Part shown: positions 2,808 to 30,380 of the stretch, piece by piece
Numbering within the stretch: the stretch's first letter is position 1
How the letters are laid out: each line of letters starts with the position of its first letter
Source of the DNA: Bryobacterales bacterium
Lineage (GTDB): Bacteria; Acidobacteriota; Terriglobia; Bryobacterales; UBA6623
Length of the DNA: 64,000 nt
NCBI GenBank assembly: GCA_028819255.1
Contig: JAPPMB010000116.1
Span: 34,810-98,809 of the forward strand
Direction: 5' to 3'
The notes under the pieces: generated by a model
What the model saw: the letters and a program-made list of their open reading frames with translations, nothing else
What the model was told of the DNA's origin: nothing
Database searches by the model: none
Position numbers and translations under genes: made by a program

Positions 2808-2826
2808 GACCGCCGCACCTCAGGGC

Positions 2827-5006: not shown

Positions 5007-5012
5007 GCGCGG

Positions 5013-6693: not shown

Positions 6694-6739
6694 GCGCCTG
6701 CCAAGAGCAATTATTGCGCGGCGGAACGGCGCACGTCCG

Positions 6740-15377: not shown

Positions 15378-16229
15378 CTATGTGAGGTCGGCTGCTCCGA
15401 TGAGATCCTGACCCAGGATCGAGGGACACCAGAACTGTTCGATGTGCTGGATCACAAGTTCCGTCCCCTGCCTGTGACTGACGAAGGGCCTGTCACGCGG
15501 ATCATACATGGCGTCGGTCAAGTCTCGCGCGAGGACCACGTTCTTTCCGAGACGCACCTGCTGGCGAATGCCGAAGGGACGGCCCAACACGCAAATGTTC
15601 GTGTGAACACCCATCAGGACGACGTTGTCAATCCCGCGCTGTGCGAAGAAGTTGAAGATCTCCTGCCCGTCGTCGCTGATGGCGTCCTCGTCGGCAATAT
15701 GGATGTCCGGGTGCTGACGGCTCCAGACCCGTCTGCTCTCGCTCGGGAACTCATCGTCACACGGCTCCTCGTCATCGATGGGAAGCGGCGCTTCGGATTC
15801 GGGATCGAGGTAGCACCACTTCGCGATCGGCACGGGCGCGTCGACATGTGGCGCGGATCGAATGCGAGTTCGCTGGGGAGTTCCGTCGTAGAAGTCCATC
15901 GTCCCGCTTGGGGCGTGGACGATCGACACACCGAGGGCGCGAGCGCTCCTCACGACACGATTCATCCAAGGAATCATTCCTTCAAGACGCGCCACTGAAC
16001 TCATGCAGTGATGGTCATCCCACATGTCGCAGATGATGATTGCCGTCTCGGAGGCCGACCACATCAGTGTGCGGTCGATCGACTGCACGGCACCTTCACG
16101 CTCCTCGCGCGAGCGCGCCGTCAGGCGCAGCAGTGCGCTCCCCTCAGCGGGCCGATGCACCAGCCTTCTGGATGCGGCAACGGCGGCGATGCCGCATGCG
16201 CCGCAAAGCAACGCCTGTCTACGAGTCAC
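15378..16229 (-). CDS. Isochorismatase-family cysteine hydrolase with Tat signal
   Basis: 283 aa with the Tat motif MTRRQALLCG. Contains AIIICDMWDDHH (Asp) and NVVLMGVHTNICVLGR (nucleophile Cys). Confidence 0.8.
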   Translation of the reverse strand: MTRRQALLCGACGIAAVAASRRLVHRPAEGSALLRLTARSREEREGAVQSIDRTLMWSASETAIIICDMWDDHHCMSSVARLEGMIPWMNRVVRSARALGVSIVHAPSGTMDFYDGTPQRTRIRSAPHVDAPVPIAKWCYLDPESEAPLPIDDEEPCDDEFPSESRRVWSRQHPDIHIADEDAISDDGQEIFNFFAQRGIDNVVLMGVHTNICVLGRPFGIRQQVRLGKNVVLARDLTDAMYDPRDRPFVSHRQGTELVIQHIEQFWCPSILGQDLIGAADLT

Positions 16230-16286
16230 GTCCGCACTCCTACCACGGAATCATTCTACCGACGACAAGAACCCGCCGTCTGCGCT

Positions 16287-16322
16287 CGGCGGCTGATCTC
16301 CGGCGGCTGATCTCCGGCGGCT
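16287..16322. repeat. 14-bp tandem repeat, about 2.6 copies
   Basis: cggcggctgatctc occurs at 16287-16300 and 16301-16314, followed by a partial cggcggct at 16315-16322. Confidence 0.7.
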
Positions 16323-16972
16323 TGCGGGGCCGGACCGACACCAAGTTTGGCGGCCCGCACATGAACTGAGGGAACAGCGGTTTGTCGAGGGTGAGCAGCT
16401 AGACACCGGCAGGTACGTGCGGCCATAAACTGGATGGACTCGGCAGGGGTACGCACGAGTTCTCTTTCTAACCAAACGGGCCGTCTGTGCGTCCGCGAAC
16501 AGTGCCGGCGAAATCGTGACCATCGGCGCAGGAAACTACGGCAGCGTCGTATTTCCTCACTTTCTGACGGAATCTGGTCGAGCACTCGCCTAGCTGATCT
16601 GTTTCATGGCGGCGAGGTGGTTAAGGCGCCGTCCATGAGGGTTAGGCCTCGGAAGAATCGCGATTGAAGACGAACTCGGCAACGAGAAGCCACCTGTGAT
16701 ACGCGCCCGCACCGGGGACAAGCACCTCTTGGATTGTTAGAACCCGCACTTCTTCGGCGGGGAATCTGCAATCTGTTCCGGCGGCACTCCAAGCGCTTCT
16801 CGAAGACCAAGAGCGACCCCGGTGGTCGGCCAAGACGCGGCCCCTCCCAATTGCAATACGAGCTCGTGGAGGACTGCTCTTGGCGCTGTCCGTCGAATCC
16901 GGAACGAAGTCGCACACCTTCCCGGATGCTGCGTCCTTGACGCAGTAGCAACTTGTTACTACCTTAGAGTGG

Positions 16973-17251
16973 GTGAGATCGGTTGGGATCAGAGTCCTCA
17001 ACAGTCGGCTCAGCGAGTATGTGCGTATGGCAGCGAGCGGAGAGACCATCCTGGTGACGGACCGCGATCGGGTGGTAGCGGAAATCGGCCCACCCCGAGA
17101 AACAAGGAGCCCGGTTCTGGCGGACGCGGTGCGGAAGGGTTGGTTGACTCCCCCGCTCCTGCCTTCCGTCGGAACGCCTCCAGGGCGGGAACCAAGGATG
17201 GCATTGAACGAAGTTGGTGCGGAGTTGGAAGGCGACCGAAGCGAACGGTGA
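16973..17251 (+). CDS. vapB: Type II antitoxin, Phd/YefM-VapB-like
   Basis: 92 aa. The N-terminus (IRVLNSRLSEYVRMAASGETILVTDRDRVVAEI) is typical of prevent-host-death-type antitoxins. Its stop overlaps the PIN gene start (GTGA at 17248-17251). Confidence 0.8.
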   Translation: MRSVGIRVLNSRLSEYVRMAASGETILVTDRDRVVAEIGPPRETRSPVLADAVRKGWLTPPLLPSVGTPPGREPRMALNEVGAELEGDRSER

Positions 17252-17634
17252 TCTACGTAGGCACTTCCGTGGCTCTCGCTCACCTTCTGGCCGAGGATTA
17301 TCGCCCGCCTGACGCTTTTTGGGGCGCAACTCTTGTCTCCGGAAGCTTGATCAAGTACGAGATCTGGACTCGACTGAACGCACGCAATCTTGACAAATCC
17401 CATGGTGATGCGGCTCGCGGAATCATCGGTTGCATCGCTCTGCTGGAGCTGACACCCGCTGTCCTCGAACGTGCCCTGGACGTTTTTCCCCATTCAGTTC
17501 GCACCCTTGATGCCTTGCATCTGGCAAGTTTCCATTTTCTGTGGCGACAAAGACTGCCCATCGAGCTCGCCGGTTACGACCATCGGATGTTGACCGTGCC
17601 GGAAGCCATGGGAATGCCTCGCTTCATCTCCTGA
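17248..17634 (+). CDS. vapC: PIN-domain toxin
   Basis: GTG start within ORF 16822..17634, giving VIYVGTSVALAHLL...LIKYEIW...TLDALHLASF...GYDHRM. PIN acidic residues 2-4 are present, but the first (usually D in I-x-x-D-T-S) is Gly (GGC at 17260-17262). Confidence 0.8.
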   Translation: MIYVGTSVALAHLLAEDYRPPDAFWGATLVSGSLIKYEIWTRLNARNLDKSHGDAARGIIGCIALLELTPAVLERALDVFPHSVRTLDALHLASFHFLWRQRLPIELAGYDHRMLTVPEAMGMPRFIS

Positions 17635-18472
17635 GATTCCCGAGGAGTGGTGACTGCTCCTAGGTGCGCTCGACTCAGCTTCGACATTTGATTGCCAGTT
17701 CGAAGTACGCACCACACCAACTCATTTACATCCTGTTTCGCCTGGACCCGGCAGCGAGGCAAGCAAACTGAGTGTTCAGAATCGAGGGATAGATTAGGCC
17801 AAAGTAGGATGGGACCGCGACTTGGCCGCAGCTGGAACTCTGCTCGCGAAGCGGGTGGAATGGCTTGCGCCCGCCGCACATAGCGCCGCAATGGGTAAAG
17901 GGACACGGTCTCGGGCCGTTCGTGCTGTGGGTAGTTGAGGAGACCGAGCGTGGCGCCGACCTCAATCCAATTCGCGGAGCGGTGGCCGGTCCAGACAAAC
18001 CGCGCCGGGGCCACAAGATTCACCGTCCGCCCGATGGTGCAGGTCATAGAGACATGGATCGCTGCGGACGCAAGGGCCATGGCGTGGCACCACTCCAGAT
18101 TCTCGAAGGCTGCTTCGATGCGCGAGGTCCCTCGCCCCGGCGGGACCATCCCTTGGCCTGCTAGTGGCTATTCAGCACCTCCGCACTGGCCTCCAACCCC
18201 ATTCCCACAGTTGTCGACGGCGTGTGGAGGTCCGGGTAGGACGATCCGCCAGTCCCGTCCGGCATGCAGTGCCCGTCTCAGCGGCAAAACGGGCCACTCT
18301 TCCAAGCGCATCCGGGCTGACGCGTGATTCGCACGTCTCCACAGCTACTGCGTTCATGGGCCGAGCGACCACCGCCGATGGTTCTCGGAAACAGCCACCA
18401 AGGCTGGTCGCTCAGCACGGCCCCGGCTTGGTTGAGTTCTCTTGGCAGCGCGGCCAGACGGGCCCGCCGAAT

Positions 18473-19840
18473 CTACTCATAGATCCTTACGCTCGTGCGA
18501 ATCTCCTCTCGGGGAAGGAGCGAGGCATGGTGAGCGACGATTTCGCGAACCCGAGGCCTCCCTTCGCCGAAACCGGTCGCGGTGGGCGGCCCGTTCAGCA
18601 CCAAGGGGATCATTTCGCGGCTGAAGCGCTCGACCGGCTCGCGCTCCGCGGCGCGTACGCCCATGCGAAGCACCACCTCGGGCGGGTCCGGAGCGGGGGC
18701 GGCCGCCGGGCCGTGGCAAGCGCCGGCACCCAGGATCTCTCCGTGAACCTCCTGGAACCGCAAGCCCAGATCCTCCAGCCTCCGGCGCACGATCTTCTCG
18801 GCGGCCCGCGCCTTCTCGACAGCCTGCGGCCAGCTGTAGACCAGAGTGCCAACGGCCTGGTAGCCCGCAACGTACGTGAGTGAGGTCTTCAGAGTGGGAG
18901 GTCGCCGGCTCCCGCGGACTCCCTCGACAGCCACCCGATCCGGACCATCCGGTCGAAGGCGGATGCTCGTAAAGTCCGCCCGACAATCGGGTGTCAGGTA
19001 GTTCCGGGGATCGCCGAGTTCGTAGAGCAGCTGTTCCTTGATGGACGCCACGGTAACTCTGCCCCCCGTCCCAGGATGCTTGGTCACCACGAATTCCCCA
19101 CTGGGACTCGCCTCGACCACCGGGAACCCGATGTTGGCAATGTCCGGGATCGACTGCCAGTCGATTGAGCAGTTTCCTCCCGTGCATTGTGCGCCGCACT
19201 CGACGATGTGCCCGGCGACGGTGCCGGCGGCCAGCGGGTTCCAGTCGTCCGACTCCCATCCGAATCGGTGGATCATCGGAGCGAGTGTCAGAGCCGAATC
19301 GGTCGAGCGACCCGCGATCACGATGTCCGCGCCGGTGGCCAAGGCTTCGGCGAGAGGAAACCCGCCAATGTACACATGGGCGCTCAGCAGGTCATTCCGG
19401 ATGGCCTCGAGCGGCCGGCCCGTGTCGATGTCGTCGAAGCGAATGCCCCTTGAAGCCAGTTCGTCGATCCTGCCGCTGATGTCATCGCCGGAGACGACAG
19501 CGATCCTAGTGCCGCACCTGTCCGTGGTGCGGGCGCGGTCAAGAATTGCCCGAGCGCACGCCTCGGGATTCACCCCGCCGGCGTTCGTCACGATCCTGAT
19601 GCCATCCGAGGCGAGCCGGGGCAGCAACCCGACGGCAAGGTCCACGAAGTCGGCAGCGTATCCTCTCGCCGGATTCCTACGGCGCTGCTTCTCCAGGATC
19701 GACATCGTGACCTCGGACAGATAGTCGAGGACGAGATAGTCGATCGGGCCGTCCCGCACCAGCCGGCGTGGCGCCTCCAGCCAGTCGCCCCAGAAACCCT
19801 GACCGTTCGCGATGCGAATCAAGTCTGTTCCTCCCGCCAT
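18473..19840 (-). CDS. AtuA-family (DUF1446) acyclic terpene utilisation-like protein
   Basis: 455 aa with the characteristic N-terminus IRIANGQGFWGDWLEAPRRLV...IDYLVLDYLSEVTMSIL and HIVECGAQCTGGN. Confidence 0.85.
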   Translation of the reverse strand: MAGGTDLIRIANGQGFWGDWLEAPRRLVRDGPIDYLVLDYLSEVTMSILEKQRRRNPARGYAADFVDLAVGLLPRLASDGIRIVTNAGGVNPEACARAILDRARTTDRCGTRIAVVSGDDISGRIDELASRGIRFDDIDTGRPLEAIRNDLLSAHVYIGGFPLAEALATGADIVIAGRSTDSALTLAPMIHRFGWESDDWNPLAAGTVAGHIVECGAQCTGGNCSIDWQSIPDIANIGFPVVEASPSGEFVVTKHPGTGGRVTVASIKEQLLYELGDPRNYLTPDCRADFTSIRLRPDGPDRVAVEGVRGSRRPPTLKTSLTYVAGYQAVGTLVYSWPQAVEKARAAEKIVRRRLEDLGLRFQEVHGEILGAGACHGPAAAPAPDPPEVVLRMGVRAAEREPVERFSREMIPLVLNGPPTATGFGEGRPRVREIVAHHASLLPREEIRTSVRIYE

Positions 19841-19864
19841 TCAGTCGGACCGCCTTCTGCCCGC

Positions 19865-20485
19865 CTACTGGCGCATCCGTCCGTTCCCGCGTGCAAGCTG
19901 CTCCCGGCGCTGGCGCCGCTGTCTCATGGTGATCATTGCCTGAAGAAAAACGGTCACCAGCTCCACTCGGTCGACTTCGCTGACCGTCCTCAGCAACTGC
20001 TGCTTGAGATCCTTGGACACGGGCAGGGCTGCTGCGACCTTGAAGCTCAGCCAAGGATGGTTGGGATCCCAGCGTGACGACTTGGACCCAGTCAGCCGCC
20101 GCACCTCGTCCCCAAGAGCAAGCATCGCCTCCACCTCCGATGCGGAAGCCTGTTCCGGCGTCTCGTCGGAAAAGTAATCGACGGCCCCTTGGAGGTATTC
20201 CTCGGACTTGTCGAATGCGCGGACGAAGAAGCGCCGGGAACCGATCACCTGGACATTGAAGCGGCCATCGTCGAAACGCTCCGTGATTTCGCGCACCCTG
20301 GCCGCACACCCAATCCGTTCCAGTTCGTCGCCACTCTTGAGTACGATTCCGAACTCGCTCCCGTCGGAATGGCATTTCGAGATCATTTTGCGATATCGCA
20401 TCTCGAAGATATGCAGTGGCAGCACCTCGCCAGGCAGCAGGACCAAGTCGAGCGGAAACAGGGGAAGGAGCGATTCCTGAGCCAT
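19865..20485 (-). CDS. Lon protease N-terminal (substrate-binding) domain-only protein
   Basis: Trimmed to MAQESLLPLFPLDLVLLPGEVLPLHIFEMRYRKM (cat at 20483-20485), a LON N-domain signature. No AAA+ or protease domain follows. Confidence 0.8.
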   Translation of the reverse strand: MAQESLLPLFPLDLVLLPGEVLPLHIFEMRYRKMISKCHSDGSEFGIVLKSGDELERIGCAARVREITERFDDGRFNVQVIGSRRFFVRAFDKSEEYLQGAVDYFSDETPEQASASEVEAMLALGDEVRRLTGSKSSRWDPNHPWLSFKVAAALPVSKDLKQQLLRTVSEVDRVELVTVFLQAMITMRQRRQRREQLARGNGRMRQ

Positions 20486-20524
20486 GCTACAGTATGCAGT
20501 CTTGGCGGGGGCTACGCGCACACC

Positions 20525-21307
20525 ATGAGCCTTGCCGCCAAGACCGCTCTGATCACAGGCGCATCCTCAGGGATCGGGAGGGCGTGTGCATTCCGGTTTG
20601 CCCGCGACGGAGCAAGACTGATTCTTGCAGGGCGCAATCGGGCGGCCTTGGAGAAGACAGCGGCCGAGACGGGAGCCGTCGCGATCGTCGAGGCGGACCT
20701 GACGATGCCCGGGGATCTCGCTCGGTTTTGCGACCGTGTCCTTGAGGCCGCACCCGTGCTCGACATCCTGGTCCACAATGCGGGGGTAGGTATCTACGCC
20801 CCTTCGTTCGCAACGGATGCCGAGAAGGCGAAGAGCCTCATGGCACTTAATCTCCTGGCACCGGTGGAGATCACCCGCAGGCTTCTCCCCAGCATTCCTG
20901 CGGGCGGCTCTGTGGTGGCGATCAGTTCGATCGCCGGAAAGGTCGCCCTTCCCGGGATGGCTGTCTACTGCGCTTCCAAGCATGCCCTGAATGCGTACGC
21001 CGACATTCTTCGAATGGAATCGCGCCAACGAGGGATTCACGTGCTGAGCGTCTGCCCCGGCTACGTCAAAACACCGTTCATCGGGAACATGCTGCAGGGA
21101 GAAACGGATAGACACCCCGAACGGCGCGGGCGCTTCGGAATCACCGCCGAGCAGTGCGCTGAGGCAATTCGTCAAGGAATCCTGGGTCGAAAGCGGACGG
21201 TAGTCGTGCCCCGGATTGGCTGGCTGCTTGTTGCCGCCGAGCGGCTTTTTCCCGCGATGACGCACAAGCTGATGACACGGCACTTGCTCGGGGACGGCAC
21301 TAGATGA
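20525..21307 (+). CDS. Short-chain dehydrogenase/reductase (SDR)
   Basis: Internal ATG at 20525 of ORF 20189..21307. Contains ALITGASSGIGRA (TGxxxGxG) and the catalytic YCASKHAL (YxxxK). Confidence 0.9.
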   Translation: MSLAAKTALITGASSGIGRACAFRFARDGARLILAGRNRAALEKTAAETGAVAIVEADLTMPGDLARFCDRVLEAAPVLDILVHNAGVGIYAPSFATDAEKAKSLMALNLLAPVEITRRLLPSIPAGGSVVAISSIAGKVALPGMAVYCASKHALNAYADILRMESRQRGIHVLSVCPGYVKTPFIGNMLQGETDRHPERRGRFGITAEQCAEAIRQGILGRKRTVVVPRIGWLLVAAERLFPAMTHKLMTRHLLGDGTR

Positions 21308-21870
21308 CGAGTGACGATCCCACGATTAGGGTGGTCGGCACCGCTCCGAACGCAATCTTCGTCGCGGGATTCATGGGATCCGGAAAATCCACCGTGGGGC
21401 GCACCCTAGGCAGCCGACTGGGCTGGCCTTTCGTGGATCTGGACGACGAGATCGAACAAGCTGCCGGACTCACGATACCCGAGATCTTCGAGGAATTCGG
21501 CGAGCAGGGCTTCCGGGACCGCGAGCACAACGCGTTGCGCGACCAGGCTGCTCGCGGGCTAGCCGGGCATCGATTCGTCCTCGCCCTCGGAGGGGGAACG
21601 TACGCTTACGCCCGCAATCGCGACCTGCTGCGACAGATTGGACCGACGCTCTGGATCGACGTTGACGCGGACACGCTGTGGAGGCGCGTCCGGGGCGCAA
21701 CGCACCGGCCACTCGCCCATGACCCCGGGGCGTTCAAGCGGCTCCACGCGTCACGCAAGGATTCCTACGCCAAGGCCGAGCACCGGATTGACGGCGCAGG
21801 GTCGGTGGCCGAGGTGGTGGCGCGGATCTTCGGGCTAGGATGGATGCAGGACCTGCTGGCCGATGCCTGA
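21304..21870 (+). CDS. aroK: Shikimate kinase
   Basis: 188 aa with Walker A GFMGSGKSTVGR and VDLDDEIEQAAGLTIPEIFEEFGEQGFRDRE. Overlaps the SDR stop by 4 nt. Confidence 0.9.
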   Translation: MTSDDPTIRVVGTAPNAIFVAGFMGSGKSTVGRTLGSRLGWPFVDLDDEIEQAAGLTIPEIFEEFGEQGFRDREHNALRDQAARGLAGHRFVLALGGGTYAYARNRDLLRQIGPTLWIDVDADTLWRRVRGATHRPLAHDPGAFKRLHASRKDSYAKAEHRIDGAGSVAEVVARIFGLGWMQDLLADA

Positions 21871-22549
21871 TCCTGTCATTCGCGCTGAAGGCCTGGGCAA
21901 GACGTTCCGCACGGGGCAGCAGGCACTCACGATCTTCTCCGGCCTCACCTTTCGGGTCAACGAAGGGGAGAGCGTCGCCCTCGTGGGGGAGTCCGGCGCC
22001 GGCAAGTCCACGCTTCTGCACATTCTTGGGGCCCTGGAGAGACCCACGGCGGGCAAGGTGATCTTCAGGGGCACTGCGCTCGGCTCGCTGAACGAGCGGC
22101 AGCTGGCCAACTATCGCAACAGGGAGATCGGATATGTCTGGCAGAACTGCCATCTCCTTCCGGAATTCACCGCCCGCGAGAACGTGGCCCTTCCGCTCCG
22201 AATCGACGGGAATGCCGAGAAGCCAAGCCTGAGGGCAGCGGACCGCCTGCTGGAGCGCGTGGGCCTGGCAGACCGTGTTAACCACCAGTCCGGAGAGCTG
22301 TCCGGCGGGGAGCAGCAGCGCGTCGCAATCGCTCGCGCACTGGTCGCCGGGCCGAGGCTGCTCCTTGCGGACGAGCCGACCGGAAACCTCGACGAGCGGA
22401 CGGGCGAGACCGTGATGCGGATGCTGCTCAGCCTGGTTCGCGAGGACAAGCTGGCGATCCTTGTTGCGACCCATAACCCCGCCTTCGCCGCGCTCTGTGA
22501 CAGGATGTTCCGGTTCGAGCACGGCCGTCTGCGTCAATCGGGCCGCTGA
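21863..22549 (+). CDS. ABC transporter ATP-binding protein, LolD/MacB-type
   Basis: 228 aa with Walker A GESGAGKST, signature LSGGEQQRVAIARAL and Walker B LLLADEPT. No permease gene is adjacent. Confidence 0.88.
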   Translation: MPDPVIRAEGLGKTFRTGQQALTIFSGLTFRVNEGESVALVGESGAGKSTLLHILGALERPTAGKVIFRGTALGSLNERQLANYRNREIGYVWQNCHLLPEFTARENVALPLRIDGNAEKPSLRAADRLLERVGLADRVNHQSGELSGGEQQRVAIARALVAGPRLLLADEPTGNLDERTGETVMRMLLSLVREDKLAILVATHNPAFAALCDRMFRFEHGRLRQSGR

Positions 22550-23347
22550 CAGCGGCTGGCCGAGAGAGAAGGACCGGCGGCGCGGGCAGAGCTTCTTGGG
22601 ACGCGCCATCGTTGCATGCGTAGGCAGGCATGTTGATATCCGACGGGATCACTGTCCGCTCTCTGCGGCGCAGTCCTCAACCTCCAAGGAACCGTTGAGC
22701 TGGTTGAGCTCCAGCGGATTGGCAGGTGAGCCTGGTGCGCAGCGCTTGGGACCAACCCGGAGCGCGTGCATTTTCGTCCCTTGCAGCCAAGGTGCCATGC
22801 CCAGAAGGGCTAACTTATCGAGGACTCCGATCAAGAGTGCCCCGTAGGCTGGGGCTGGCGATTGTGAGAGTTGTCTGCCAGTTCCGCCAAATTCGCTTGC
22901 CACTCGTCGAGAGTTTCCGCTCGTGGGACCGCCGGTTCGATCGCCCGTCGGGACTGGTTCCGGACAAACGTGAAGTCGCGCCGGACGCCGTGCGGCCCCG
23001 GATGGAGACAACCCGCAGCCCCAGCGTGTCCGTGACACGGCGCTCTCTGGCAGTTGCGTGCGCAGGGCCAGATTCGGGACGACCTCCAGCATGACCCCGA
23101 ACAGAACCGCTTCCGGGGACCCCGCGTCGATCGACGGGCGCACAGACCGTACACTGATGCTGACCCCTACGCCGATCTTGAGAAGCTTCAGACGGCTAGC
23201 CGACGCGTAAAGGGGGCGGAGGAGCCGCCGGAGCCAATGGTCGCCGACCGCAATTCCGGGTTCTGGCACGGGAGCATCGATCCGTGCATGCCCAAGGCTA
23301 CGATTTCACAGCGATAATGTGACGAATAATGCTACTTTGCTAGCGTC

Positions 23348-24056
23348 ATGTCTGCATCTGCCGCACCGTGAGCCCGCGACGTCATCCGGGACATAGCTGC
23401 CTGCGGCCGGTATCACTTTAGTTCGTTCGAGATTCGCTCTGCGCTCGAAGTCTCCGATCAGGCGGCACGCCAATCGCTGAGCCGCTGCGCAGCCAAGGGG
23501 GAGATCGCAAGTTCCGCGCGTGGATTCTATGTGGTCATGCCTCCCGAATACAGGCGTATCGGCTGTCTCCCTGCGCACCAGTTCGTTCGGGCGTTGATGG
23601 AGCACCGCAGCACCCGCTACGTCATCGGATTGCTCTCGGCCGCGCAGTATTACGGAGCGGCCCATCATCGCCCGCAGGGATTCCAGATGATGTTAAGGAG
23701 GAACCGGCCGGCAATCGTGTGCGGATCCGTCAGGGTTGTCTTAGTTGCGTGCAAGGAACTCGCTACCGTGCCAGTGAAGAGCTTCAACAATCCGCGGGGA
23801 CCAGTTCTGGTCTCGACAGTGAAGGCGACAGCGTTCGATCTGGTTGGATACATGCATCGCGCCGGCGGCGTGGTTCGGGTGCTGGGCGTGCCTTCCGAAC
23901 TCGGTGAGGATATTCGTCCGGAGCGCCTAGTTGAAGCTTTCGGGTCCTCGTCGATCCATTGGGCGCAGCGCCTAGGCTATCTCCTCAAGCATGTCGTTGC
24001 CGGGGAAAGAGCTGTGCCTCTCAAGGAGCATGTTCGGCGGAGCGCGAGAAACTATA
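23348..24056 (+). pseudogene. abiEi: abiEi (type IV TA antitoxin/transcriptional regulator), 5' part: premature stop plus IS insertion
   Basis: ATG at 23348, then an in-frame TGA at 23369-23371 (codon 8). The frame continues ARDVIRDIAACGRYHFSSFEIRSALEVSDQAARQSLSRCAAKGEIASSARGFYVVMPPEY..., which is AbiEi-like. The reading frame is broken at 24056/24057 by the IS terminal repeat. Confidence 0.75.
24049..24056. repeat. Target-site duplication, left copy (AAACTATA)
   Basis: Identical 8-mer directly abutting both outer ends of the 34-bp TIRs. Confidence 0.85.
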
Positions 24057-24090
24057 GGGGATTATATACGAGAGTGACCGCAGGGCGGGC
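24057..24090. repeat. Left terminal inverted repeat (IRL)
   Basis: ggggattatatacgagagtgaccgcagggcgggc is the exact reverse complement of 28307-28340. Confidence 0.9.
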
Positions 24091-24140
24091 CGGCGGGGGC
24101 GGGCAGACTCTTCCAGCGATGGCTTTCAGGTGTATCGCGC

Positions 24141-24551
24141 TTAGTACGCCGGTGGCGGCTGTCCGTCTTCAGTGGGAAGCGGCAGCGTGCCGAAATTCGA
24201 CGTTGCGGACTGCAGGTGCTGGATTGGAACGATAGAGAAGCAGTCGTTTGTCAGCGTATCTGACAGCGTACAGTCATTGAAGTACTGGTATACGATGCCG
24301 GTCTTCGTGTTGTACAGAAACACTGTAGGCTGATCTGTGAATGATGTCGTTTCCGTCACGCGGTTCGTGAGTTGGGCTCGAATCGTTGCCGGCTGCATAC
24401 GCCAAGGACCGGGCTCGACAACGACTGTTCCGGCGTCCTGAGAATCCGTGTCCGCGGTCTGGGTGTAGATCACTGGAACTCCTAGAATCACCGCAAGCAG
24501 TCCCCCGGCTATCACCAACCTCGCGAACATCGCTCCCCCTCTGTCGCTCAT
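24141..24551 (-). CDS. Hypothetical membrane-anchored protein (IS cargo)
   Basis: 136 aa. An N-terminal TM helix (FARLVIAGGLLAVILGVPVIY) is followed by a Thr/Val-rich soluble domain. The start overlaps the upstream 61-aa ORF stop (ATGA at 24548-24551). No family recognised. Confidence 0.5.
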   Translation of the reverse strand: MSDRGGAMFARLVIAGGLLAVILGVPVIYTQTADTDSQDAGTVVVEPGPWRMQPATIRAQLTNRVTETTSFTDQPTVFLYNTKTGIVYQYFNDCTLSDTLTNDCFSIVPIQHLQSATSNFGTLPLPTEDGQPPPAY

Positions 24552-24733
24552 GACCGGCCCCTCTCGGGCTGCTTCACATAGCGCACCCGCGCCGGGCGGA
24601 CCAGTGCCTTCGCTGCCTGCTCGAAGTCATCCCACCTCGAGCCCATCCGCAGATCTTCCCGCAGTTCCGCACGGTTCGGCTGGTAGCTCGGATGCACGAT
24701 CTTAACGTCACGCGGCTCGGGCTTCGACTTCAT
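24548..24733 (-). CDS. Hypothetical small basic protein (IS cargo, possible regulator)
   Basis: 61 aa (MKSKPEPRDVKIVHPSYQPNRAELREDLRMGSRWDDFEQAAKALVRPARVRYVKQPERGRS). Translationally coupled to the 136-aa ORF and preceded by a perfect palindrome. No family recognised. Confidence 0.45.
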   Translation of the reverse strand: MKSKPEPRDVKIVHPSYQPNRAELREDLRMGSRWDDFEQAAKALVRPARVRYVKQPERGRS

Positions 24734-24739
24734 GACACC

Positions 24740-24806
24740 TGAATCATAGCATATTTGGCGGTTTTCCGGATTTTCGCCCGATTTTCCTTGCGTATGCTAT
24801 GATTCA
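24740..24806. promoter_or_regulatory. Operator-like 14-bp perfect inverted repeat flanking an AT-rich spacer
   Basis: tgaatcatagcata (24740-24753) pairs with tatgctatgattca (24793-24806). The spacer contains three TTTTC-core repeats (ggttttcc, gattttcg, gattttcc). Starts 7 nt upstream of the 61-aa ORF start. Confidence 0.4.
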
Positions 24807-25099
24807 AGCGGACACATCAGCGGGGAGCCCGTGCCGGGCCGCCTGCTGAATAAACCGACGCAGTGGCGATGGGTAGCTCCCGGAGCCCCGGCGAATAGGC
24901 AGGATTTCACCTAATCTCCGGATGATGTGTCCACGACCCGGCTCCACGGAGCCGGATGGGGGAGACCCGTGGGAAAGATGACTTGCACTGCCTTGTCGGC
25001 AGGAGCATGACTGGTGTCGGGCCATGAAGCTCGCCTATGGGGGAACGGCGGCCCTACGTATTCACCGGGGAGGCTTGACCTGCGGGTGTCCATCCGCAT

Positions 25100-25837
25100 A
25101 TGGGAGACAACATGAAGAAGCACGTACTGCCCGTTGCGGCAGCCATCGCGCTGTGTCTCTGGGCGGCGATCACGCCCGCGAACGCAGCGGAACGATACGA
25201 GGCGGTGGTCAACGCCGTTGCCTGTGACGACAAGCCCGCGATGATCGAGTTCGTTAGGGCACTCAATTCTGGGCAGGACTCTCGTGCGCTGTCCATAGCC
25301 AACAGGGCTCGAAGCTCAGGTGCGTCTTGCACCGTGGTCAAACAGGGAACATTCGTGGCGGGAGCACCTTCTGGATGGGGACTGATCTACTTGCCAGGCG
25401 GTGGCTACTACTCCCCTATGGCTGGGTTTGATCCTGCTCCACGCCTTGCCATGAGAGGCGGCTGGAAATGCAACGAGCAAAGTGAGTTCGAGAAGTCTCA
25501 AGGGATGAGGCAGGCTTCGAATGTGAGCCAGCGCCTGATATTGACCCGCTCTAGGGAAAGGTTCATACTTGCGTTCATGATTCCTGACGGCGGAGTATGG
25601 CTCTTGGAACACTCTCCGAGAGAGGTGAAATTCACGGTTGACGGAGGTGGAACGCACACCATCGAGACTCAGTATGGGAATCTGGAGGCCGTCCTCACCA
25701 ATGAGTTGACAACGGCCCTCAAGCGAGGTCTGAATGTATGGATCGAGATCGTGCCAGACAGTGGCAGGACATACAGCTACAGTGCCAGCCTGATCGGATT
25801 CACAGCGGCGCACGCCTGTGTCAGTCTGCCGATCTAG
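25100..25837 (+). CDS. Hypothetical secreted protein (IS cargo)
   Basis: 245 aa with the signal peptide MKKHVLPVAAAIALCLWAAITPANA|AE. An alternative start exists at 25112. No family recognised. Confidence 0.55.
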   Translation: MGDNMKKHVLPVAAAIALCLWAAITPANAAERYEAVVNAVACDDKPAMIEFVRALNSGQDSRALSIANRARSSGASCTVVKQGTFVAGAPSGWGLIYLPGGGYYSPMAGFDPAPRLAMRGGWKCNEQSEFEKSQGMRQASNVSQRLILTRSRERFILAFMIPDGGVWLLEHSPREVKFTVDGGGTHTIETQYGNLEAVLTNELTTALKRGLNVWIEIVPDSGRTYSYSASLIGFTAAHACVSLPI

Positions 25838-25908
25838 GAACCTAGGAACAGGAGATCGCAGCTTAGGCCGCCCTGGCTTCGGACGCCTGACCGTTGCCGC
25901 CATGAGGT

Positions 25909-26199
25909 ATGATGGTCTCAGTGTCGGAGCAGGAGCAGGACCGCCATCTGGGAGAGTTGCTTGTGGAGCAGCGCAGACTTCGCAGGTCGCTTGCGTGCCT
26001 GAAATCGAAGATCGAGAGGATTAGCGAAAAACTGAAAGCAGCTGTCGAGTCCAATCACGTTAATTTCAAGCATAGGCACAACGACTTCCTCAAGGTTGGT
26101 GGCGGTGATCTGTCCCGCTACATGAAAGAGTACAAGGATGGACTTGAGAGGAAGGGCACACTGGATCGTCAGATTCGAGAAATCGACGGCTATGAGTAG
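25909..26199 (+). CDS. Hypothetical coiled-coil protein (IS cargo)
   Basis: 96 aa with a charged heptad-like sequence (LGELLVEQRRLRRSLACLKSKIERISEKLKAAVES). Ends 12 nt from the convergent transposase stop. No family recognised. Confidence 0.4.
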   Translation: MMVSVSEQEQDRHLGELLVEQRRLRRSLACLKSKIERISEKLKAAVESNHVNFKHRHNDFLKVGGGDLSRYMKEYKDGLERKGTLDRQIREIDGYE

Positions 26200-26211
26200 C
26201 TGTGGATTGTT

Positions 26212-27192
26212 CTAGGCAGCCCGAGCACTGGACGCCCGCCCGTTTTCCTTTATCAGGGCCTTGTAGGTGAGCCGCTTGCCGTCCATGCCGTCCGCAACGG
26301 CCTCTATTTGCCTGATGGTGTCCAGTTCGCGGATGTTGTGCTTGCCCGCAAACTCGTCCACATACCGCTGCAGGTGCTTCGGGCTCATCTTGTGGAACGT
26401 GCCCTTGTGCGCCCGCTTGAGCATGGACCAGAACGATACCACGCCGTTCGTGTGAACCGAGCCCCGGACGTACTCCTTGAGTGAATGCTTCACCGCATCA
26501 TGGTTGTGGGGCAGGCTCTCGTAAGCCTTGGCCTCGTCCGTGTAGACGGTGGCATTGGGATCGGCATGCTCGGCAACGAAGCCCTGTAGCGTCTCCTTGT
26601 CCGTCGAATCGACCGCCTTGGCCGCGACCTTGTTGGTGGCGCGATCCTTCGCGCCGACCACGGCCGCCTTGCCCGTCGGTCCACGGCCTGTCATCGTCTT
26701 GCGCTTCGCATTGCTCATTTTCTTGCGCTTCCCGCCCATGTACGTCTCATCCACCTCCACGGGTCCGGCGAAGTCGCCGGCACCGTCCGCCATGCCGGAG
26801 CGCACGCGATGGGCAAGGAACCACGCACTCTTCTGCGTGATGCCCAGGTCACGGTGCAGCTTCATGCTCGAAACGCTCTTGAGGCTGGTGTTGAGCAGGA
26901 ACGTGGCAAGCAGCCAGTCCTGATAGCCGATCTTCGATCCTTCCATCACCGTGCCGGTCTTGACGCTGAAGAACTTCCGACCGCAGACTTTCTCCCGGCA
27001 GCGGTAGGGCATCGTCTTGTGCGTCGTGCCGACCTGCACGTTGAATGATCCGCAGCGCGGGCACCAAATGCCGTCCGGCCAGCGCTGCTTGACGAACCAC
27101 CTCTCGGCGGCCGCGTCAGTCGGAAACAGCTTGAAGAACTTCTTCAGCGGGATTCCCTCTCGACGTGCCTTGCCCGGTCCTGTTCCTGCCAT
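26212..27192 (-). CDS. IS1595-family transposase
   Basis: 326 aa. It has an N-terminal Zn-ribbon (CPRCGSFNV...YRCREKVCGRKF) and a DDE region (VEVDETYMGG, VYTDEAKAY, HTNGVVSFWSMLKR), as in ISXO2/IS1595 transposases. Confidence 0.92.
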   Translation of the reverse strand: MAGTGPGKARREGIPLKKFFKLFPTDAAAERWFVKQRWPDGIWCPRCGSFNVQVGTTHKTMPYRCREKVCGRKFFSVKTGTVMEGSKIGYQDWLLATFLLNTSLKSVSSMKLHRDLGITQKSAWFLAHRVRSGMADGAGDFAGPVEVDETYMGGKRKKMSNAKRKTMTGRGPTGKAAVVGAKDRATNKVAAKAVDSTDKETLQGFVAEHADPNATVYTDEAKAYESLPHNHDAVKHSLKEYVRGSVHTNGVVSFWSMLKRAHKGTFHKMSPKHLQRYVDEFAGKHNIRELDTIRQIEAVADGMDGKRLTYKALIKENGRASSARAA

Positions 27193-27274
27193 GACTACAG
27201 TTTACAGGAAAGTAACCACGATGTCAAGCAAATTTTGGGAAAATCGTCTGCTAGAATATTTCAAGCAAAAGAAC

Positions 27275-27301
27275 GAGGCCGGCGTTAGCAGCGCCGGCCT
27301 C
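27275..27301. other. Stem-loop 1 in the transposase leader (complete copy)
   Basis: gaggccggcg / ttagcag / cgccggcctc: a 10-bp perfect stem with a 7-nt loop. The counterpart in the deleted copy is at 28125-28143. Confidence 0.6.
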
Positions 27302-27333
27302 GAATGTCGGGGAGATCATACACAACCCGAACG

Positions 27334-27353
27334 CTGAACAAAAGCATGTTCAG
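27334..27353. other. Stem-loop 2 in the transposase leader (complete copy)
   Basis: ctgaaca / aaagca / tgttcag: a 7-bp stem. The counterpart in the deleted copy, with a different stem sequence, is at 28208-28255. Confidence 0.5.
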
Positions 27354-27467
27354 TATAGCATTTGGGCTGTGCCTGTGTCTCCCCAGAGTTGCAGTTATTC
27401 GAGACTGTTGCAGGGGTTGCGCCGGTGCCCTTGCGTCAGGCGATCAAACCGGCTGGAGAAAACAGCT

Positions 27468-27761
27468 ATGAGCAATTCCTACCCGTACAACGACCTAGCG
27501 ATTAGCCTGAATGTCCCGCACAGCCCAGGAGTCTACCTGATTCAAAGCGTGGACGGAACACACATCTATGTTGGACTTGCCGAAGCAAGCATCCGCGATC
27601 GACTCTTGCAGCACTGTGGCGGATCAAGCATGCAGGCATACTGCATCAATCAATGGTCGCCGGCAACCTTCCAGTTTCTGGTGATTTTCGACCGAGAACT
27701 GCGATGGGCTAGGGAACGTGAGTTGCGATTTGCGCTGGGTCCTCGTTGCAATCGCCAGTGA
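27468..27761 (+). CDS. Small GIY-YIG nuclease-domain protein (IS cargo)
   Basis: Internal ATG at 27468 with ggaga 8-9 nt upstream, giving 97 aa. Contains PGVYLIQSVDGTHIYVGLAEASIRDRLLQH (GIY...YVG...R...H) and a downstream RERELRF. Confidence 0.7.
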   Translation: MSNSYPYNDLAISLNVPHSPGVYLIQSVDGTHIYVGLAEASIRDRLLQHCGGSSMQAYCINQWSPATFQFLVIFDRELRWARERELRFALGPRCNRQ

Positions 27762-28002
27762 GTGCGCCTCCTGTACCGTTGTACCTTCCAGTCAGTCGAG
27801 TGAAGTACAGGTCGTAGATCTTGCCTCGCTCGGCAATCCTCAACCGGGCGAGCAGAGGTCCGCCCTCGATAATGATCTTCTTACCGGACAGTCCGCACTG
27901 GTGCTCTCCCGGCCAAAGGATCACGGGGGCTCCTGCCAGGTCGAGGATCCCCCCGCAGAACGCCCGAATTGCTATCCATAATGATGCAAAAGCCAGTTTC
28001 AT
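27709..28002 (-). CDS. Hypothetical small secreted protein (IS cargo)
   Basis: 97 aa with the signal-like N-terminus MKLAFASLWIAIRAFCGG. aaggag lies 8 nt upstream. The ATG overlaps the stop of the transposase fragment (ATGA). The 3' end overlaps the convergent GIY-YIG ORF by 53 nt. Confidence 0.4.
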   Translation of the reverse strand: MKLAFASLWIAIRAFCGGILDLAGAPVILWPGEHQCGLSGKKIIIEGGPLLARLRIAERGKIYDLYFTRLTGRYNGTGGALTGDCNEDPAQIATHVP

Positions 28003-28124
28003 GCGGTTAACTCCTTGTAGGTGAGCCGTCTGCCCTGCATTCCATCACTGTTTGACCACGATGTCAAGCGGTTTTCGGCTTTGTGTATGCTAGGCTCAAG
28101 AGCAAGTGGCAGGGACACGAATCC

Positions 28125-28143
28125 GGCCCGGAATCAGCGGGCC
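28125..28143. other. Stem-loop 1 in the leader of the deleted IS copy
   Basis: ggcccg / gaatcag / cgggcc: a 6-bp stem with a 7-nt loop that ends in CAG, like the complete-copy loop ttagcag. Confidence 0.5.
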
Positions 28144-28207
28144 AGAAAGGAGATGAAGATCATGAGAGTTCTGTCGGAAGCATTCATCCCGCAGCCTCCT
28201 TTGAGTT

Positions 28208-28255
28208 GCCGGGGCTGAAGCTTTGAAGTGCCCGAGAGGGTGCTTCAGCCCCGGC
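28208..28255. other. Stem-loop 2 in the leader of the deleted IS copy
   Basis: gccggggctgaagc (28208-28221) is the exact complement of gcttcagccccggc (28242-28255): a 14-bp stem with a 20-nt loop. Confidence 0.6.
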
Positions 28256-28306
28256 AGCAAACCTCTGTGTCCCTGCTCACTTGAGCAATCATACCTCCTG
28301 CTGACC

Positions 28307-28340
28307 GCCCGCCCTGCGGTCACTCTCGTATATAATCCCC
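28307..28340. repeat. Right terminal inverted repeat (IRR)
   Basis: gcccgccctgcggtcactctcgtatataatcccc is the exact reverse complement of IRL (34/34). Confidence 0.9.
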
Positions 28341-28348
28341 AAACTATA
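28341..28348. repeat. Target-site duplication, right copy (AAACTATA)
   Basis: Identical to 24049-24056. Confidence 0.85.
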
Positions 28349-28464
28349 CGAAGCTCCTGCCGAGCACGAGTGCCGAAAGTGCGTTGCGCTCGAAAGACTG
28401 GCGGCTGTTCGTGAACGCCGATATCGGAGACGGATGGGTGATCCCGCGAGACTACATCACCTAG
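28349..28464 (+). pseudogene. abiEi: abiEi 3' part
   Basis: After removing the IS and one TSD copy, the frame continues ...RNY|TKLLPSTSAESALRSKDWRLFVNADIGDGWVIPRDYIT* with the stop TAG at 28462-28464. Confidence 0.75.
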
Positions 28465-28672
28465 CGGGAAGGCTCTTCGAGCGCCGCTTCGAGGCGCTGG
28501 AGCAGCCGGTCCCCGACTGCCCGGCGCCGGGAAAGCCGAGGCCCGCGCTCGTGGTGGAATACGGCCCAGATTGGCCCCCCATCTTAGGGCGACCGAGGCA
28601 ATAGAGCCGGTAGGGGCGCAGCCCATGTTGGCACCCTTACAAGACGGTCCCCGATCCGGCCGCAGTTCAAGG

Positions 28673-29998
28673 TCATCCCGAGGGCGAGTCCTCTCGGGTG
28701 GATGCCAGTGCGTCGGATCTGAAGGCGAGGCACTGGAAGAAGTCGTCAATTCGTCTGTACTCCCGATCGTCCGAATCCATGAAGACTTCCAATCTTCGGA
28801 TCACTTTGTTCCTAACTTCGCGTGCTGACAATTCGACAAGCTCTTCGTTGGAGAGGATCTCCTCGCGATAAACGCCTTGCCAGCGGTAGCTCCAGACCCT
28901 GACGGAGTACTTGTCTGGTTTTTGTCTGTTGATCGGTGTCTTCTCCATGAAACTCTTCAGCCGGTTCACGAAGGAACGCTCCTTGCGGTTATCGCTGCGG
29001 AAAGCGAAGTCTATCTTGACATCGTGACGTGTGAATGTTATGAACCAGGAAAGCGCGTCACGATGGCCGCCCATCCTCAGCACGGCGTCACCCAAGGTCA
29101 CATCGGTCCATCCCAGCCAGTAGGTCCCCGAGCGGTTGTTGGAAGACGTTGGCGTAACGCCCCGGCCTCTCAAGTAGTTTGCCACCGCAGCCCGCAGTTC
29201 CATCGGATTGTGTCTGGACTCCTTCACCAGGTTGACGAGCGAGTTGCGGTACTCTGCCCGGTCTGCTGACACCATCCCGCGGACACCATCGTCGCCGTGC
29301 TTCCCTAGGACCCGGCGCAATCTCTTCAGGATTGCGCGATGGTCGTCGAGAAGCACCCTGTAGCCCTCGCCGCCGGGACGAAACCACCGCTCGATCATGT
29401 CGAGGTACTGCCTGATGAAGGTTTGCACGCTTGGACACGTAAACTCCCCAGCCGCCGAGACCGTACGGATGGCTTGGAGGACCGAGTCCCAACCGACATG
29501 GGCGATGCTCGGGAAGTTATCGCTTCCTTCCAGCGAGGTGGTCAACAGGACGCTTCTCACCGTGTGGCCCTCGTGCTTTCCTAGTAGCGTCTCTTCGTAG
29601 CGCCTGACTTGATCAAGATGGTGGGGAGAAGCCGACTCCGTCTTGTTCTCGACGGCGATCAAGCACTTCTCCGTCTTGAAGCGGATCGTGATGTCGACGT
29701 GGTCCCGTTCTCTCCAGACCTCGACATTCCCCGCCTCGAAGCTGGTCTCGGGAAGAGGCTTCGTATCCGCCGCCGGGAATTGGCCATTGACGTGGTTGAC
29801 GAACCATCTTAGGAACCGCGAGCCGATTCCATGGGTGTCGGCGGGCCGGAGCAGCCATGCCAGCACGTTGCTGTGGCGTATTTCGTAATTCGCGTACTGG
29901 AGAACATCGAACGTGTTGAATTTCCGTGGCCCCCCGAACTTCCGGTGGTATGCCCGAAACCTGGGAGCGTCGATCAGGTTCCGCAGGTCGTCTTCCAT
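28673..29998 (-). CDS. PD-(D/E)XK nuclease-superfamily protein with an uncharacterised C-terminal domain
   Basis: 441 aa. The N-terminal block is FNTFDVLQYANYEIRHSNVLAWLLRPADTHGIGSRFLRWF, followed by the D...E-x-K core (HVDITIRF...CLIAVENKTE) and DQVRRYEE. The C-terminal ~250 aa have no motif I recognise. Confidence 0.75.
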   Translation of the reverse strand: MEDDLRNLIDAPRFRAYHRKFGGPRKFNTFDVLQYANYEIRHSNVLAWLLRPADTHGIGSRFLRWFVNHVNGQFPAADTKPLPETSFEAGNVEVWRERDHVDITIRFKTEKCLIAVENKTESASPHHLDQVRRYEETLLGKHEGHTVRSVLLTTSLEGSDNFPSIAHVGWDSVLQAIRTVSAAGEFTCPSVQTFIRQYLDMIERWFRPGGEGYRVLLDDHRAILKRLRRVLGKHGDDGVRGMVSADRAEYRNSLVNLVKESRHNPMELRAAVANYLRGRGVTPTSSNNRSGTYWLGWTDVTLGDAVLRMGGHRDALSWFITFTRHDVKIDFAFRSDNRKERSFVNRLKSFMEKTPINRQKPDKYSVRVWSYRWQGVYREEILSNEELVELSAREVRNKVIRRLEVFMDSDDREYRRIDDFFQCLAFRSDALASTREDSPSG

Positions 29999-30380
29999 GC
30001 GTCCGCCTCCCCTTCGAGTGTAGTGTGCAGATGGCGTCTCTCGATCCGGGCCATCGGAAAGTCAGCGTGAGTCGGGTCTCTCGCCAGACAAGTCGCGACC
30101 TGATGAGGGACTGCCCCCTCAGTCCGTCGGCGGTCTCGGCCCACCGATGCACAGCCTATGCGCGAGCAATCCACGAGAGCGCATCGGCGATGGCGTTCGG
30201 TGGCGGAGACCCCAGGCGCCCGTTGCCCCGGCAACGGCGAGAAATGCCGGGGTTCAACGCGGCGGAGCGCGACTCCGGGAGATGCGGTCACCAACCTCAG
30301 GCCTTCACTTCCAACGGAATGCAAGCCGGGCGGGTGGCCGGGTGCGATAGCCTATAGACGCGAGCCATAGTATCCCTGTC

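Follow-up and report, generated by a model that had tools for sequence, protein, structure and literature searches.

Insertion sequences (ISs) that carry passenger genes between their ends, the so-called transporter ISs (tISs), were first described for the IS1595 family, according to PMC3129680 and PMC7986276, which cite Siguier, Gagnevin and Chandler 2009. Here we analyze an element of this kind in a stretch of 64,000 nucleotides (the window) from a Bryobacterales bacterium, where it splits the gene abiEi; the window DNA is the consensus sequence of a metagenome-assembled genome (MAG). As in the described IS1595 tISs, the element has a transposase with a Zn-ribbon and a DDE domain, an 8-bp duplication of its target, and passengers inside its ends. 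The differences are that its clade has a conserved second small gene (orf61), that its passengers occupy three slots, one of them upstream of the transposase gene, and that this copy has a valine at the position of the predicted catalytic glutamate. We hold with good confidence that this is a passenger-carrying IS1595-family copy in an orphan abiEi, predicted to be non-autonomous, and that its insertion is old or neutral, in a decaying locus.

The window was compared with related or metagenome loci, which we number with an L. Some of them recur below: L152 (ENA ERZ23495404 scaffold_1728) is a syntenic relative of the window locus, L080 is a Logan contig from an independent assembly of the same sample, and the sibling (L082/L083) is an element at 2804-6753 of JAPPEZ010000057.1, in a Bryobacterales MAG from the same study (GCA_028824065.1). 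The ends of the element and the two parts of the interrupted gene are the following.

23348-24056, forward strand: 5′ part of the abiEi pseudogene, with an in-frame TGA at 23369-23371 (Pfam AbiEi_1, 3.6e-34)
24049-24056, no strand: left target-site duplication, AAACTATA, which fits the WWWNNWWW pattern of the duplications of 48 relatives
24057-24090, forward strand: left terminal inverted repeat, distal to the transposase gene; its first 20 nt are common to L023, L037 and L050, and at least 33 nt to L083
28103-28306, reverse strand: conserved subterminal region common to the sibling, including a hairpin at 28207-28256
28307-28340, reverse strand: right terminal inverted repeat, the transposase-proximal end in relatives; 41 nt are identical to the sibling's end
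28341-28348, no strand: right target-site duplication, AAACTATA
28349-28464, forward strand: 3′ part of the abiEi pseudogene, with an extra G at 28426/28427; the TGA at 28439-28441 would correspond to the stop of the orthologues

The evidence for transposition starts with the ends. The first 34 nt of the mobile unit (24057-28340, 4284 bp) are the exact reverse complement of the last 34 (34/34), and the complementarity ends abruptly past them. No further copy of this end is found in the window at up to 3 mismatches, nor in any of 100 shuffles. The same 8 bp abut both ends, and removing 24057-28348 fuses the two halves of abiEi in frame at codon 237, with the empty-site junction reading ...GAGAAACTATACGAAGC... 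and the fused frame retaining the AbiEi_1 match. When searched by BLASTP, the restored protein finds thousands of uninterrupted AbiEi proteins, nearly all of them 266 amino acids (aa) long and the best 85% identical. Across the junction, the window's ARNY|TKLLP aligns without any indel to the ARNYTKLLP (...HVRRRARNYTKLLP...) of 266-aa orthologues with 71-83% identity. An initial annotation, made from the letters alone, had reported perfect 34-bp repeats, an 8-bp duplication and an in-frame junction on deletion, and all of these stand.

That annotation had also called the event a genuine transposition and had named the empty site in related genomes as the place to check it. L152 provides that site. 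It is 92.7% identical to the window over 19351-24054 and 88.5% over 28342-30045, has the same neighbors (SKI, ABC_tran, abiEi and a convergent PDDEXK_4 gene), and carries one GAATTACA in place of the window's AAACTATA-element-AAACTATA, at exactly the same junction and within an intact 266-aa abiEi. This is a genuine transposition of a passenger-carrying IS1595-family element, and the insertion postdates the separation from the lineage of L152, where the flanks differ by 7-11%.

Could a chimeric join in a MAG mimic such an insertion? The source is a metagenome assembly, so the question is fair, but an exact 8-bp duplication, an in-frame junction and a syntenic empty site are not what one expects of a misjoin, and L080 independently reproduces window 24061-26398 (2338 bp of the interior, up to the element end) at 100% identity. 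Because the syntenic empty site and the independent contig agree, misassembly is very unlikely, to the point that we give it hardly any weight. The L080 contig breaks 4 nt inside the left end and again inside the transposase gene, at 26398. The first break would be explained if, as we assume for this assembler, the 34-bp inverted repeat is longer than the k-mer size.

A compositional difference had also been reported, of about 48-55% GC in the element against 65-70% in core genes. Its direction is right and its size is not: the element has 58.1% GC and the window 64.7%, but the flanking kilobases have 58-61%, and the surrounding 23-30 kb region is low in GC too. Upstream of the locus, at 16000-18000 of the window, is another low-GC stretch (59-61%).

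The relatives of the element tell us which of its features belong to the clade. A scan of one genome per species gave 339 relatives of the transposase, and the comparisons here use the best 79 loci (63-72% identity), which come mostly from MAGs of Bryobacterales and other Acidobacteriota, with some from proteobacterial MAGs. Paired ends beginning GGGGATTAT(A/G)T are found in 62 of these related loci, and in none of the 62 does the mobile unit end elsewhere. Perfect 8-bp duplications flank 49 of the 62; they follow the pattern WWWNNWWW, which the window's AAACTATA fits, and are 80% A+T in DNA that averages 61.5% GC. Because the same termini and 8-bp duplications bound the relatives, the 34-bp repeats are the functional ends of the element, as had been proposed for them.

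These relatives make up 33 distinct element types of 1342-4029 bp. The types found in multiple copies (up to 13) are the minimal ones, while the long types are mostly single-copy. The window's element sits at the long end of this size continuum, and passenger-carrying forms are common in the clade. Passenger-carrying members of the IS1595 family range from 1.75 to 4.75 kb, and the length of the window element lies inside that range.

By the features that define the IS1595 family (a Zn-ribbon and a DDE domain, an 8-bp duplication, and inverted repeats bounding the mobile unit), the element belongs to it. It is also a tIS, with five passenger open reading frames (ORFs) and one RNA within a single pair of ends. 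It does not have the makeup of a composite transposon, since it contains one transposase gene plus a 45-nt stub of another and no internal end sequences. As for the subgroup, the ends suggest that the element may belong to ISNwi1, for which the ISfinder table has ends of the form ggnnatTAT, a form that GGGGATTAT would fit. ISNwi1 has a DDEK signature, and the E with K at +7 of the relatives would be a putative likeness to it. The closest transposases in annotated plasmids are at most 40% identical.

The closest comparison is the sibling. It shares ends of at least 33 nt (41 nt at one end), an 8-bp duplication (TTATGCAG) and the gene layout, and it is 87% identical in the transposase, 82% in orf61 and 92.7% in the RNA region. 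It differs in being 3950 bp long, in lacking an 873-bp block, in having other small ORFs, and in keeping the glutamate that the window copy has lost. Within the subterminal region the two also share the hairpin at 28207-28256, which has a 15-bp stem with compensatory changes between them (GGGGC/GCCCC in one, GGGAC/GTCCC in the other); it may be a transposase-binding or regulatory element.

Eight other relatives (L008, L015, L017, L030, L034, L035, L046 and L048) have the same ends and core genes, with a passenger directly after the transposase gene. Their cargo is either an N6_N4 methylase-HNH fusion, or a D12 methylase with a NotI-type endonuclease, or an Eco57I-like enzyme of about 900 aa, and its start codon often overlaps the stop of the transposase gene. 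Unlike these carriers of restriction-modification genes, the window element has no methylase. Two further arrangements were seen among the relatives. The unit at 1987-11549 of L010 is 9563 bp long, with GGGGATTAT ends and an 8-bp duplication (AAATTAAA), and has near-perfect inverted arms of 639, 633 and 2348 nt around its transposase gene, an architecture that could reflect an inverted dimer or nesting. A 3080-bp unit at 4948-8027 of L053 / L063, likewise with an 8-bp duplication, is made up of two 1536-bp copies of a minimal relative, either nested or in tandem.

The question of whether the window element can still move depends on its transposase gene, which is read toward the left end from a predicted promoter.

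26212-27192, reverse strand: IS1595-family transposase, 326 aa, with D148, D219 and V252 (codon 26437-26439, GTA)
27199-27227, reverse strand: putative transposase promoter, TTGACA-17-TAAACT, 7 nt before the ATG, with a score of 10 of 12, kept in the sibling L083
27274-27302, reverse strand: intrinsic terminator just upstream of that promoter, with an 11-bp stem and a T tail

The transposase had been recognized from its translation as a Zn-ribbon and DDE protein of the IS1595 kind, and the profile searches bear this out: it matches Pfam PF12760 Zn_ribbon_IS1595 (9.4e-06), PF12762 DDE_Tnp_IS1595 (4.8e-40) and NCBIfam NF033547 transpos_IS1595 (1.8e-53, 181.6 bits against a cutoff of 75). Position 252, on the other hand, is Val in the window and Glu in 89/89 transposase copies of the related loci, the sibling included. 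Where the relatives have the motif HTNG[IVAM]E[SG][LF]W..LKR, the window reads HTNGVVSFWSMLKR, a difference of one base (GAA to GTA). D148 and D219 are invariant, residue 252 comes 33 after D219, and K259 follows at +7. In DDE transposases of other families the third catalytic residue has an established spacing and Lys signature of this type, and from that spacing together with its invariance here we predict E252 to be the third catalytic residue. Because a valine replaces this invariant and presumably catalytic glutamate, the window transposase is predicted to be inactive and the element unable to move alone. The window copy thus lacks the complete triad (D, D, and E/N/H followed by K), and is a member of the IS1595 family by descent. 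The terminator is a strong one and would shield the gene from read-through, a protection that is common for transposase genes in ISs.

The state of the target gene has a bearing on the age of the insertion. The abiEi product is a full-length AbiEi homologue, 32% identical to an annotated Legionella AbiEi. The initial annotation had it that deleting the element recreates a 274-codon ORF. The junction is indeed restored, but such an ORF is not: codon 8 from the ATG at 23348 is TGA, so that the window reads MSASAAP*ARDV... where orthologues begin MSASAA(P/L)RARDV and L152 has CGA (Arg). The open part of the rejoined frame is 266 codons, with no ATG, GTG or TTG before 23531, and a start at 23531 would drop the N-terminal DNA-binding part of AbiEi. 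In addition, the extra G at 28426/28427 is a +1 frameshift with respect to the syntenic orthologue; orthologues end in ...VNADIEADA*, and the window runs 8 codons longer. The IS therefore sits in a gene with three lesions: the insertion, the nonsense codon and the frameshift.

This abiEi is also an orphan. In the AbiE type IV toxin-antitoxin systems, abiEi is followed by the gene for the nucleotidyltransferase toxin AbiEii, whereas the window has the AbiEi_1 domain with no AbiEii after it, so the locus is not an AbiE system. A tblastn search with AbiEii finds none in the window, and L152 is also without it; the locus of a more distant orthologue, L153, does have AbiEii. Convergent with abiEi, at 28673-29998 on the reverse strand, is the 441-aa PDDEXK_4 gene, which matches the PADLOC candidate PDC-S26 (6e-39). 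Because the abiEi/PDDEXK_4 pair without AbiEii is also kept in the syntenic L152, the orphan AbiEi-like regulator may pair with this PDDEXK_4 nuclease. About 700 bp past the PDDEXK_4 gene, at 7059-7547 of L152, there is a fragment of an IS1595-type transposase gene (Zn-ribbon) with 69% nucleotide identity to the window gene; the neighborhood seems to be a repeated target of this IS clade.

The initial annotation took the undecayed repeats as a sign of a recent event. Carried further, this becomes the proposal that an active, autonomous cargo-carrying IS has recently inactivated a working abiEi, and several observations agree with it: the ends are perfect (34/34) and so is the duplication (8/8), the transposase ORF is full length with both Pfam domains, its putative promoter is intact, and the element is missing from L152. 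The ends, however, are identical in a sibling whose transposase has diverged to 87% identity, so their identity reflects function and not age, and most relatives have kept perfect duplications too. Adding the substitution at a residue invariant in 89 relatives, the nonsense codon and frameshift that abiEi has besides the insertion, and the lack of an AbiEii partner both in the window and in L152, we consider a recent insertion by an active element unlikely. In our preferred reading the locus is decaying and the insertion is old or neutral, because the target gene also has a nonsense codon and a frameshift.

An element with an inactive transposase could still be moved in trans by the enzyme of a sibling with the same ends. 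It is possible, though rather doubtful, that this is what happened, and that E252V predates the insertion, the element having been moved by a co-resident sibling IS in the manner of miniature or cassette derivatives. A related genome from the same study does contain a sibling whose ends are identical and whose E252 is intact, and the cargo-laden relatives are mostly single-copy while the minimal ones reach 13 copies. The second break of L080, at 26398, could stem from further transposase copies of similar sequence in the sample, which would be a weak hint in the same direction. But no sibling is present within the 64-kb window, and a single copy does not reveal whether the mutation or the insertion came first. 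We retain the non-autonomous copy in a decaying locus as the account of the element, and turn to what it carries.

24141-24551, reverse strand: orf136, a passenger whose N-terminus is a membrane anchor or a signal sequence; the stop of orf61 and the start of orf136 overlap (ATGA)
25112-25837, forward strand: orf245, a passenger of 241 aa from the ATG at 25112, secreted, with a weakly IalB-like C-terminal part
25909-26199, forward strand: orf96, a passenger encoding a small coiled-coil protein, with marginal similarity only, to a 93-aa ORF in L008
27468-27761, forward strand: passenger encoding a stand-alone GIY-YIG nuclease domain of 97 aa (Pfam GIY-YIG, 5.5e-07; weak matches to the N-terminal part of UvrC/Cho)
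27709-28002, reverse strand: orf97, a passenger of 97 aa with an AAGGAG ribosome-binding site; its ATG overlaps the stop of the transposase stub
28002-28046, reverse strand: stub of a second transposase gene, 45 nt, which reads DGMQGRRLTYKELTA* and runs straight into orf97; an 82% repeat of 26259-26292
28055-28078, reverse strand: diverged second copy of the transposase promoter region, GCTTGACATCGTGGT, from the alignment with L083

The passengers thus number five ORFs plus the RNA, and two of the proteins are predicted to be secreted. About six non-transposase ORFs had originally been counted as cargo in addition to a GIY-YIG gene; the GIY-YIG gene is there, at 27468-27761, but the others are five, and one of these (orf61) is a core gene. 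The passengers were run against Pfam, NCBIfam, PADLOC and PHROGs. Neither orf136 nor orf97 has a match in any of these four libraries, and PADLOC and PHROGs give only a marginal GIY-YIG match for the whole set. No homologues of orf136, orf245, orf96, the GIY-YIG gene or orf97 appear among the 79 related loci, and orf136 is absent from all relatives. The orf245 family is rare, and its homologues elsewhere lie in chromosomal variable regions and not in ISs; its N-terminus has 33% identity to a 120-aa ORF of the sibling element, a distant partial homologue.

The 873 bp that the window has in excess of the sibling (27230-28102) lie between the subterminal region and the transposase promoter, and contain the GIY-YIG gene, orf97, the second promoter copy and the 45-nt transposase stub. 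The transposase C-termini of L047, L037 and L050 end like the stub. Because the block holds a transposase 3′ end together with a second promoter copy, it points to capture from another IS of the clade: orf97 and the GIY-YIG gene would once have followed the transposase gene of that IS, and recombination and deletion would have left them where they are now. A different origin can be imagined, in which the block entered by homing through its own endonuclease. Free-standing GIY-YIG homing endonucleases exist, the block encodes such a nuclease domain, and it is precisely missing from the sibling, between conserved flanks. But the in-frame IS1595-type transposase 3′ end and the second promoter point to an IS of the clade, the GIY-YIG protein has 97 aa and no DNA-binding domain, and no homologous block occurs in 150 related or metagenome loci, all of which makes homing distinctly improbable.

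Several observations weigh against the account given so far, that of a non-autonomous, passenger-carrying copy in a gene already decaying. No second copy of the exact element was found, whether in the window, by megablast of the element against plasmids (no match), or by exact look-up of the transposase in public assemblies (no record), so that mobility as a 4.28-kb unit is shown by a single event only. The catalytic role of E252 is a prediction from its invariance and from the DDE spacing of other families; a single-sequence AlphaFold model of the transposase has a predicted local distance difference test score (pLDDT) of 39, too low for use, and a PDB profile search gave a chance match only, with nothing informative. 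E252V itself is a MAG consensus call at a codon outside L080, and it could be a consensus error or a minority variant, as could the TGA and the extra G of abiEi. Finally, remnants of internal ends, which would speak for a two-element origin of the 873-bp block, were not found; the best internal match is 14 of 24, within chance.

The second core gene of the clade deserves separate attention.

24548-24733, reverse strand: orf61, 61 aa, with the motif HPSYQPxRAELxEDLR

Homologues of orf61 are found by tblastn in nearly all of the 79 related loci, including the minimal elements of 1.34-1.5 kb, and in every relative that has it the gene shares the strand of the transposase gene and is placed between that gene and the distal end. 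The GC content at third codon positions (GC3) is 0.82 for the transposase gene and 0.79 for orf61, and 0.59-0.66 for the other ORFs. Differences in orf61 at codon positions 1/2/3 number 12/13/54. Taken together, conservation and position argue that orf61 is a core gene of the clade and not cargo. We know of no second small gene of this kind described for the IS1595 family. Among 1.84 billion proteins, 261 representatives belong to the orf61 family, and the YQP...L core within their motif is nearly invariant. Profile searches of Pfam and PDB find no relatives, even with a 54-sequence profile, and the AlphaFold model is weak (pLDDT 67, two short helices only), too weak for a fold search. We considered a ribbon-helix-helix protein because of the beta-alpha-alpha spacing, and rejected it as there is no evidence in its support.

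Between orf61 and orf245 lies the one passenger that is an RNA.

24740-24806, no strand: 14-nt perfect palindrome arms, with identical TGCTATGAT boxes facing both ways
24808-24955, forward strand: structured RNA, with a core at 24831-24946 within an outer helix, GGACACATCA/TGATGTGTCC (nhmmer 4.8e-21)

The interval from orf61 to orf245 is 92.7% identical to that of the sibling, which exceeds the coding regions, and it is also present in L064, L066 and L069; in all, the RNA is present in 5 related elements. A search with a degenerate pattern finds it in 63 metagenome contigs; in some 22 of these, and not in the others, an IS1595-type transposase gene or orf61 is close to it. Over 46 distinct sequences of the RNA core, the nested helices are 97.1% paired. 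There are 37 double-change cells, where shuffles give 12.4 +/- 2.6 and slid controls have far lower numbers. The outer helix is present in all 46 sequences with 9-21 bp and 40 different arm sequences; the mean is 13.4 for each RNA's own arms and 6.8 with mismatched partners. As for the strand, we rejected the alternative that the RNA is read on the strand of orf61: the many U.G pairs, the downstream genes and the Rfam matches all indicate the forward strand. Also rejected was a tie to the orf245 family, whose homologues elsewhere are without the RNA.

Together, these features and those of the downstream sequence suggest that the RNA is a cis-acting leader. In most loci an ORF starts at most 260 nt downstream of the RNA, and in many of these it is a gene for a signal-peptide protein or lipoprotein; moreover, as read from the alignment, the 3′ strand of helix P1 has a second pairing partner, in downstream sequence that immediately precedes a GGAG box. 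Many homologues have a CTA(T/C)GCT-type box ahead of the RNA. In the window, the palindrome would act as twin divergent extended -10 promoters, one for the orf61-orf136 side (near-leaderless) and one for the RNA side. Several large lipoproteins that follow the RNA, in L105, L108 and L118/L121, end in ...G(V/A)FGA(L/H/K)R(E/Q/K), an ending that may resemble the C-terminal strand of TbpB-like surface lipoproteins.

An Rfam search of the element returns nothing at E<=1, and the window copy of the RNA returns nothing at E<=10. The homologues have a sole Rfam match, sRNA-Xcc1 (RF02221), in the correct place and strand and covering the whole model, with scores of 31, 31 and 24 bits that fall below the 53 bits of the gathering score and of family membership. 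The sRNA-Xcc1 RNAs occur on integron cassettes, transposons and plasmids, upstream of symE (bioRxiv 10.1101/2025.06.18.660453). Both kinds of RNA ride mobile elements and both stand upstream of a gene. On the other hand, the window-type RNA has an extra conserved hairpin of about 30 nt and a long variable outer helix, and the genes after it are mostly for signal-peptide proteins or lipoproteins and not symE. We class the window RNA as a divergent, enlarged relative of sRNA-Xcc1 that lies outside that family.

From these comparisons we can outline how such elements are built and would be moved. The clade core consists of inverted ends of about 30 bp beginning GGGGATTAT, a Zn-ribbon and DDE transposase gene with its promoter adjoining one end, and a second gene (orf61) of about 55-60 aa adjoining the other. 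The transposase would bind the ends and join them to the two strands of an A+T-rich WWWNNWWW target with a stagger of 8 bp, and gap repair would then give the 8-bp duplication. The extra DNA sits in three slots: from the subterminal region to the transposase promoter (in the window, the GIY-YIG gene, orf97 and the second-transposase stub), from the transposase gene to orf61 (orf96, orf245 and the sRNA-Xcc1-like RNA), and from orf61 to the distal end (orf136). A more ambitious proposal, which we put forward tentatively and well short of even confidence, is that the clade has a previously unrecognized two-gene core, with orf61 as a new accessory or regulator of transposition. It would shuttle restriction-modification systems across phyla, along with a portable leader RNA that drives genes for secreted proteins and surface lipoproteins; its passengers would arrive when related ISs recombine and the surplus transposase gene is then lost, with the stub at 28002-28046 as the footprint.

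None of these findings overturns current understanding, as the passenger-carrying kind of IS1595 element has already been described, and the window element is an ordinary and probably fossilized mobile element. For annotation, the locus should be read as an IS1595-family tIS, probably defective, in an abiEi pseudogene, and not as an active element freshly disrupting a defense gene. The orf61 family, the restriction-modification cargo of the relatives and the sRNA-Xcc1-like RNA are worthwhile leads, secondary to the insertion itself. Among them, the RNA is a well-supported structured element found in several phyla and partly on these ISs, and it merits its own study. For the biology of ISs, we have a clade with graded sizes of 1.34-4.3 kb, a second small gene, three slots for passengers and frequent restriction-modification cargo, and in the stub at 28002-28046 a concrete footprint of how passengers may be acquired.

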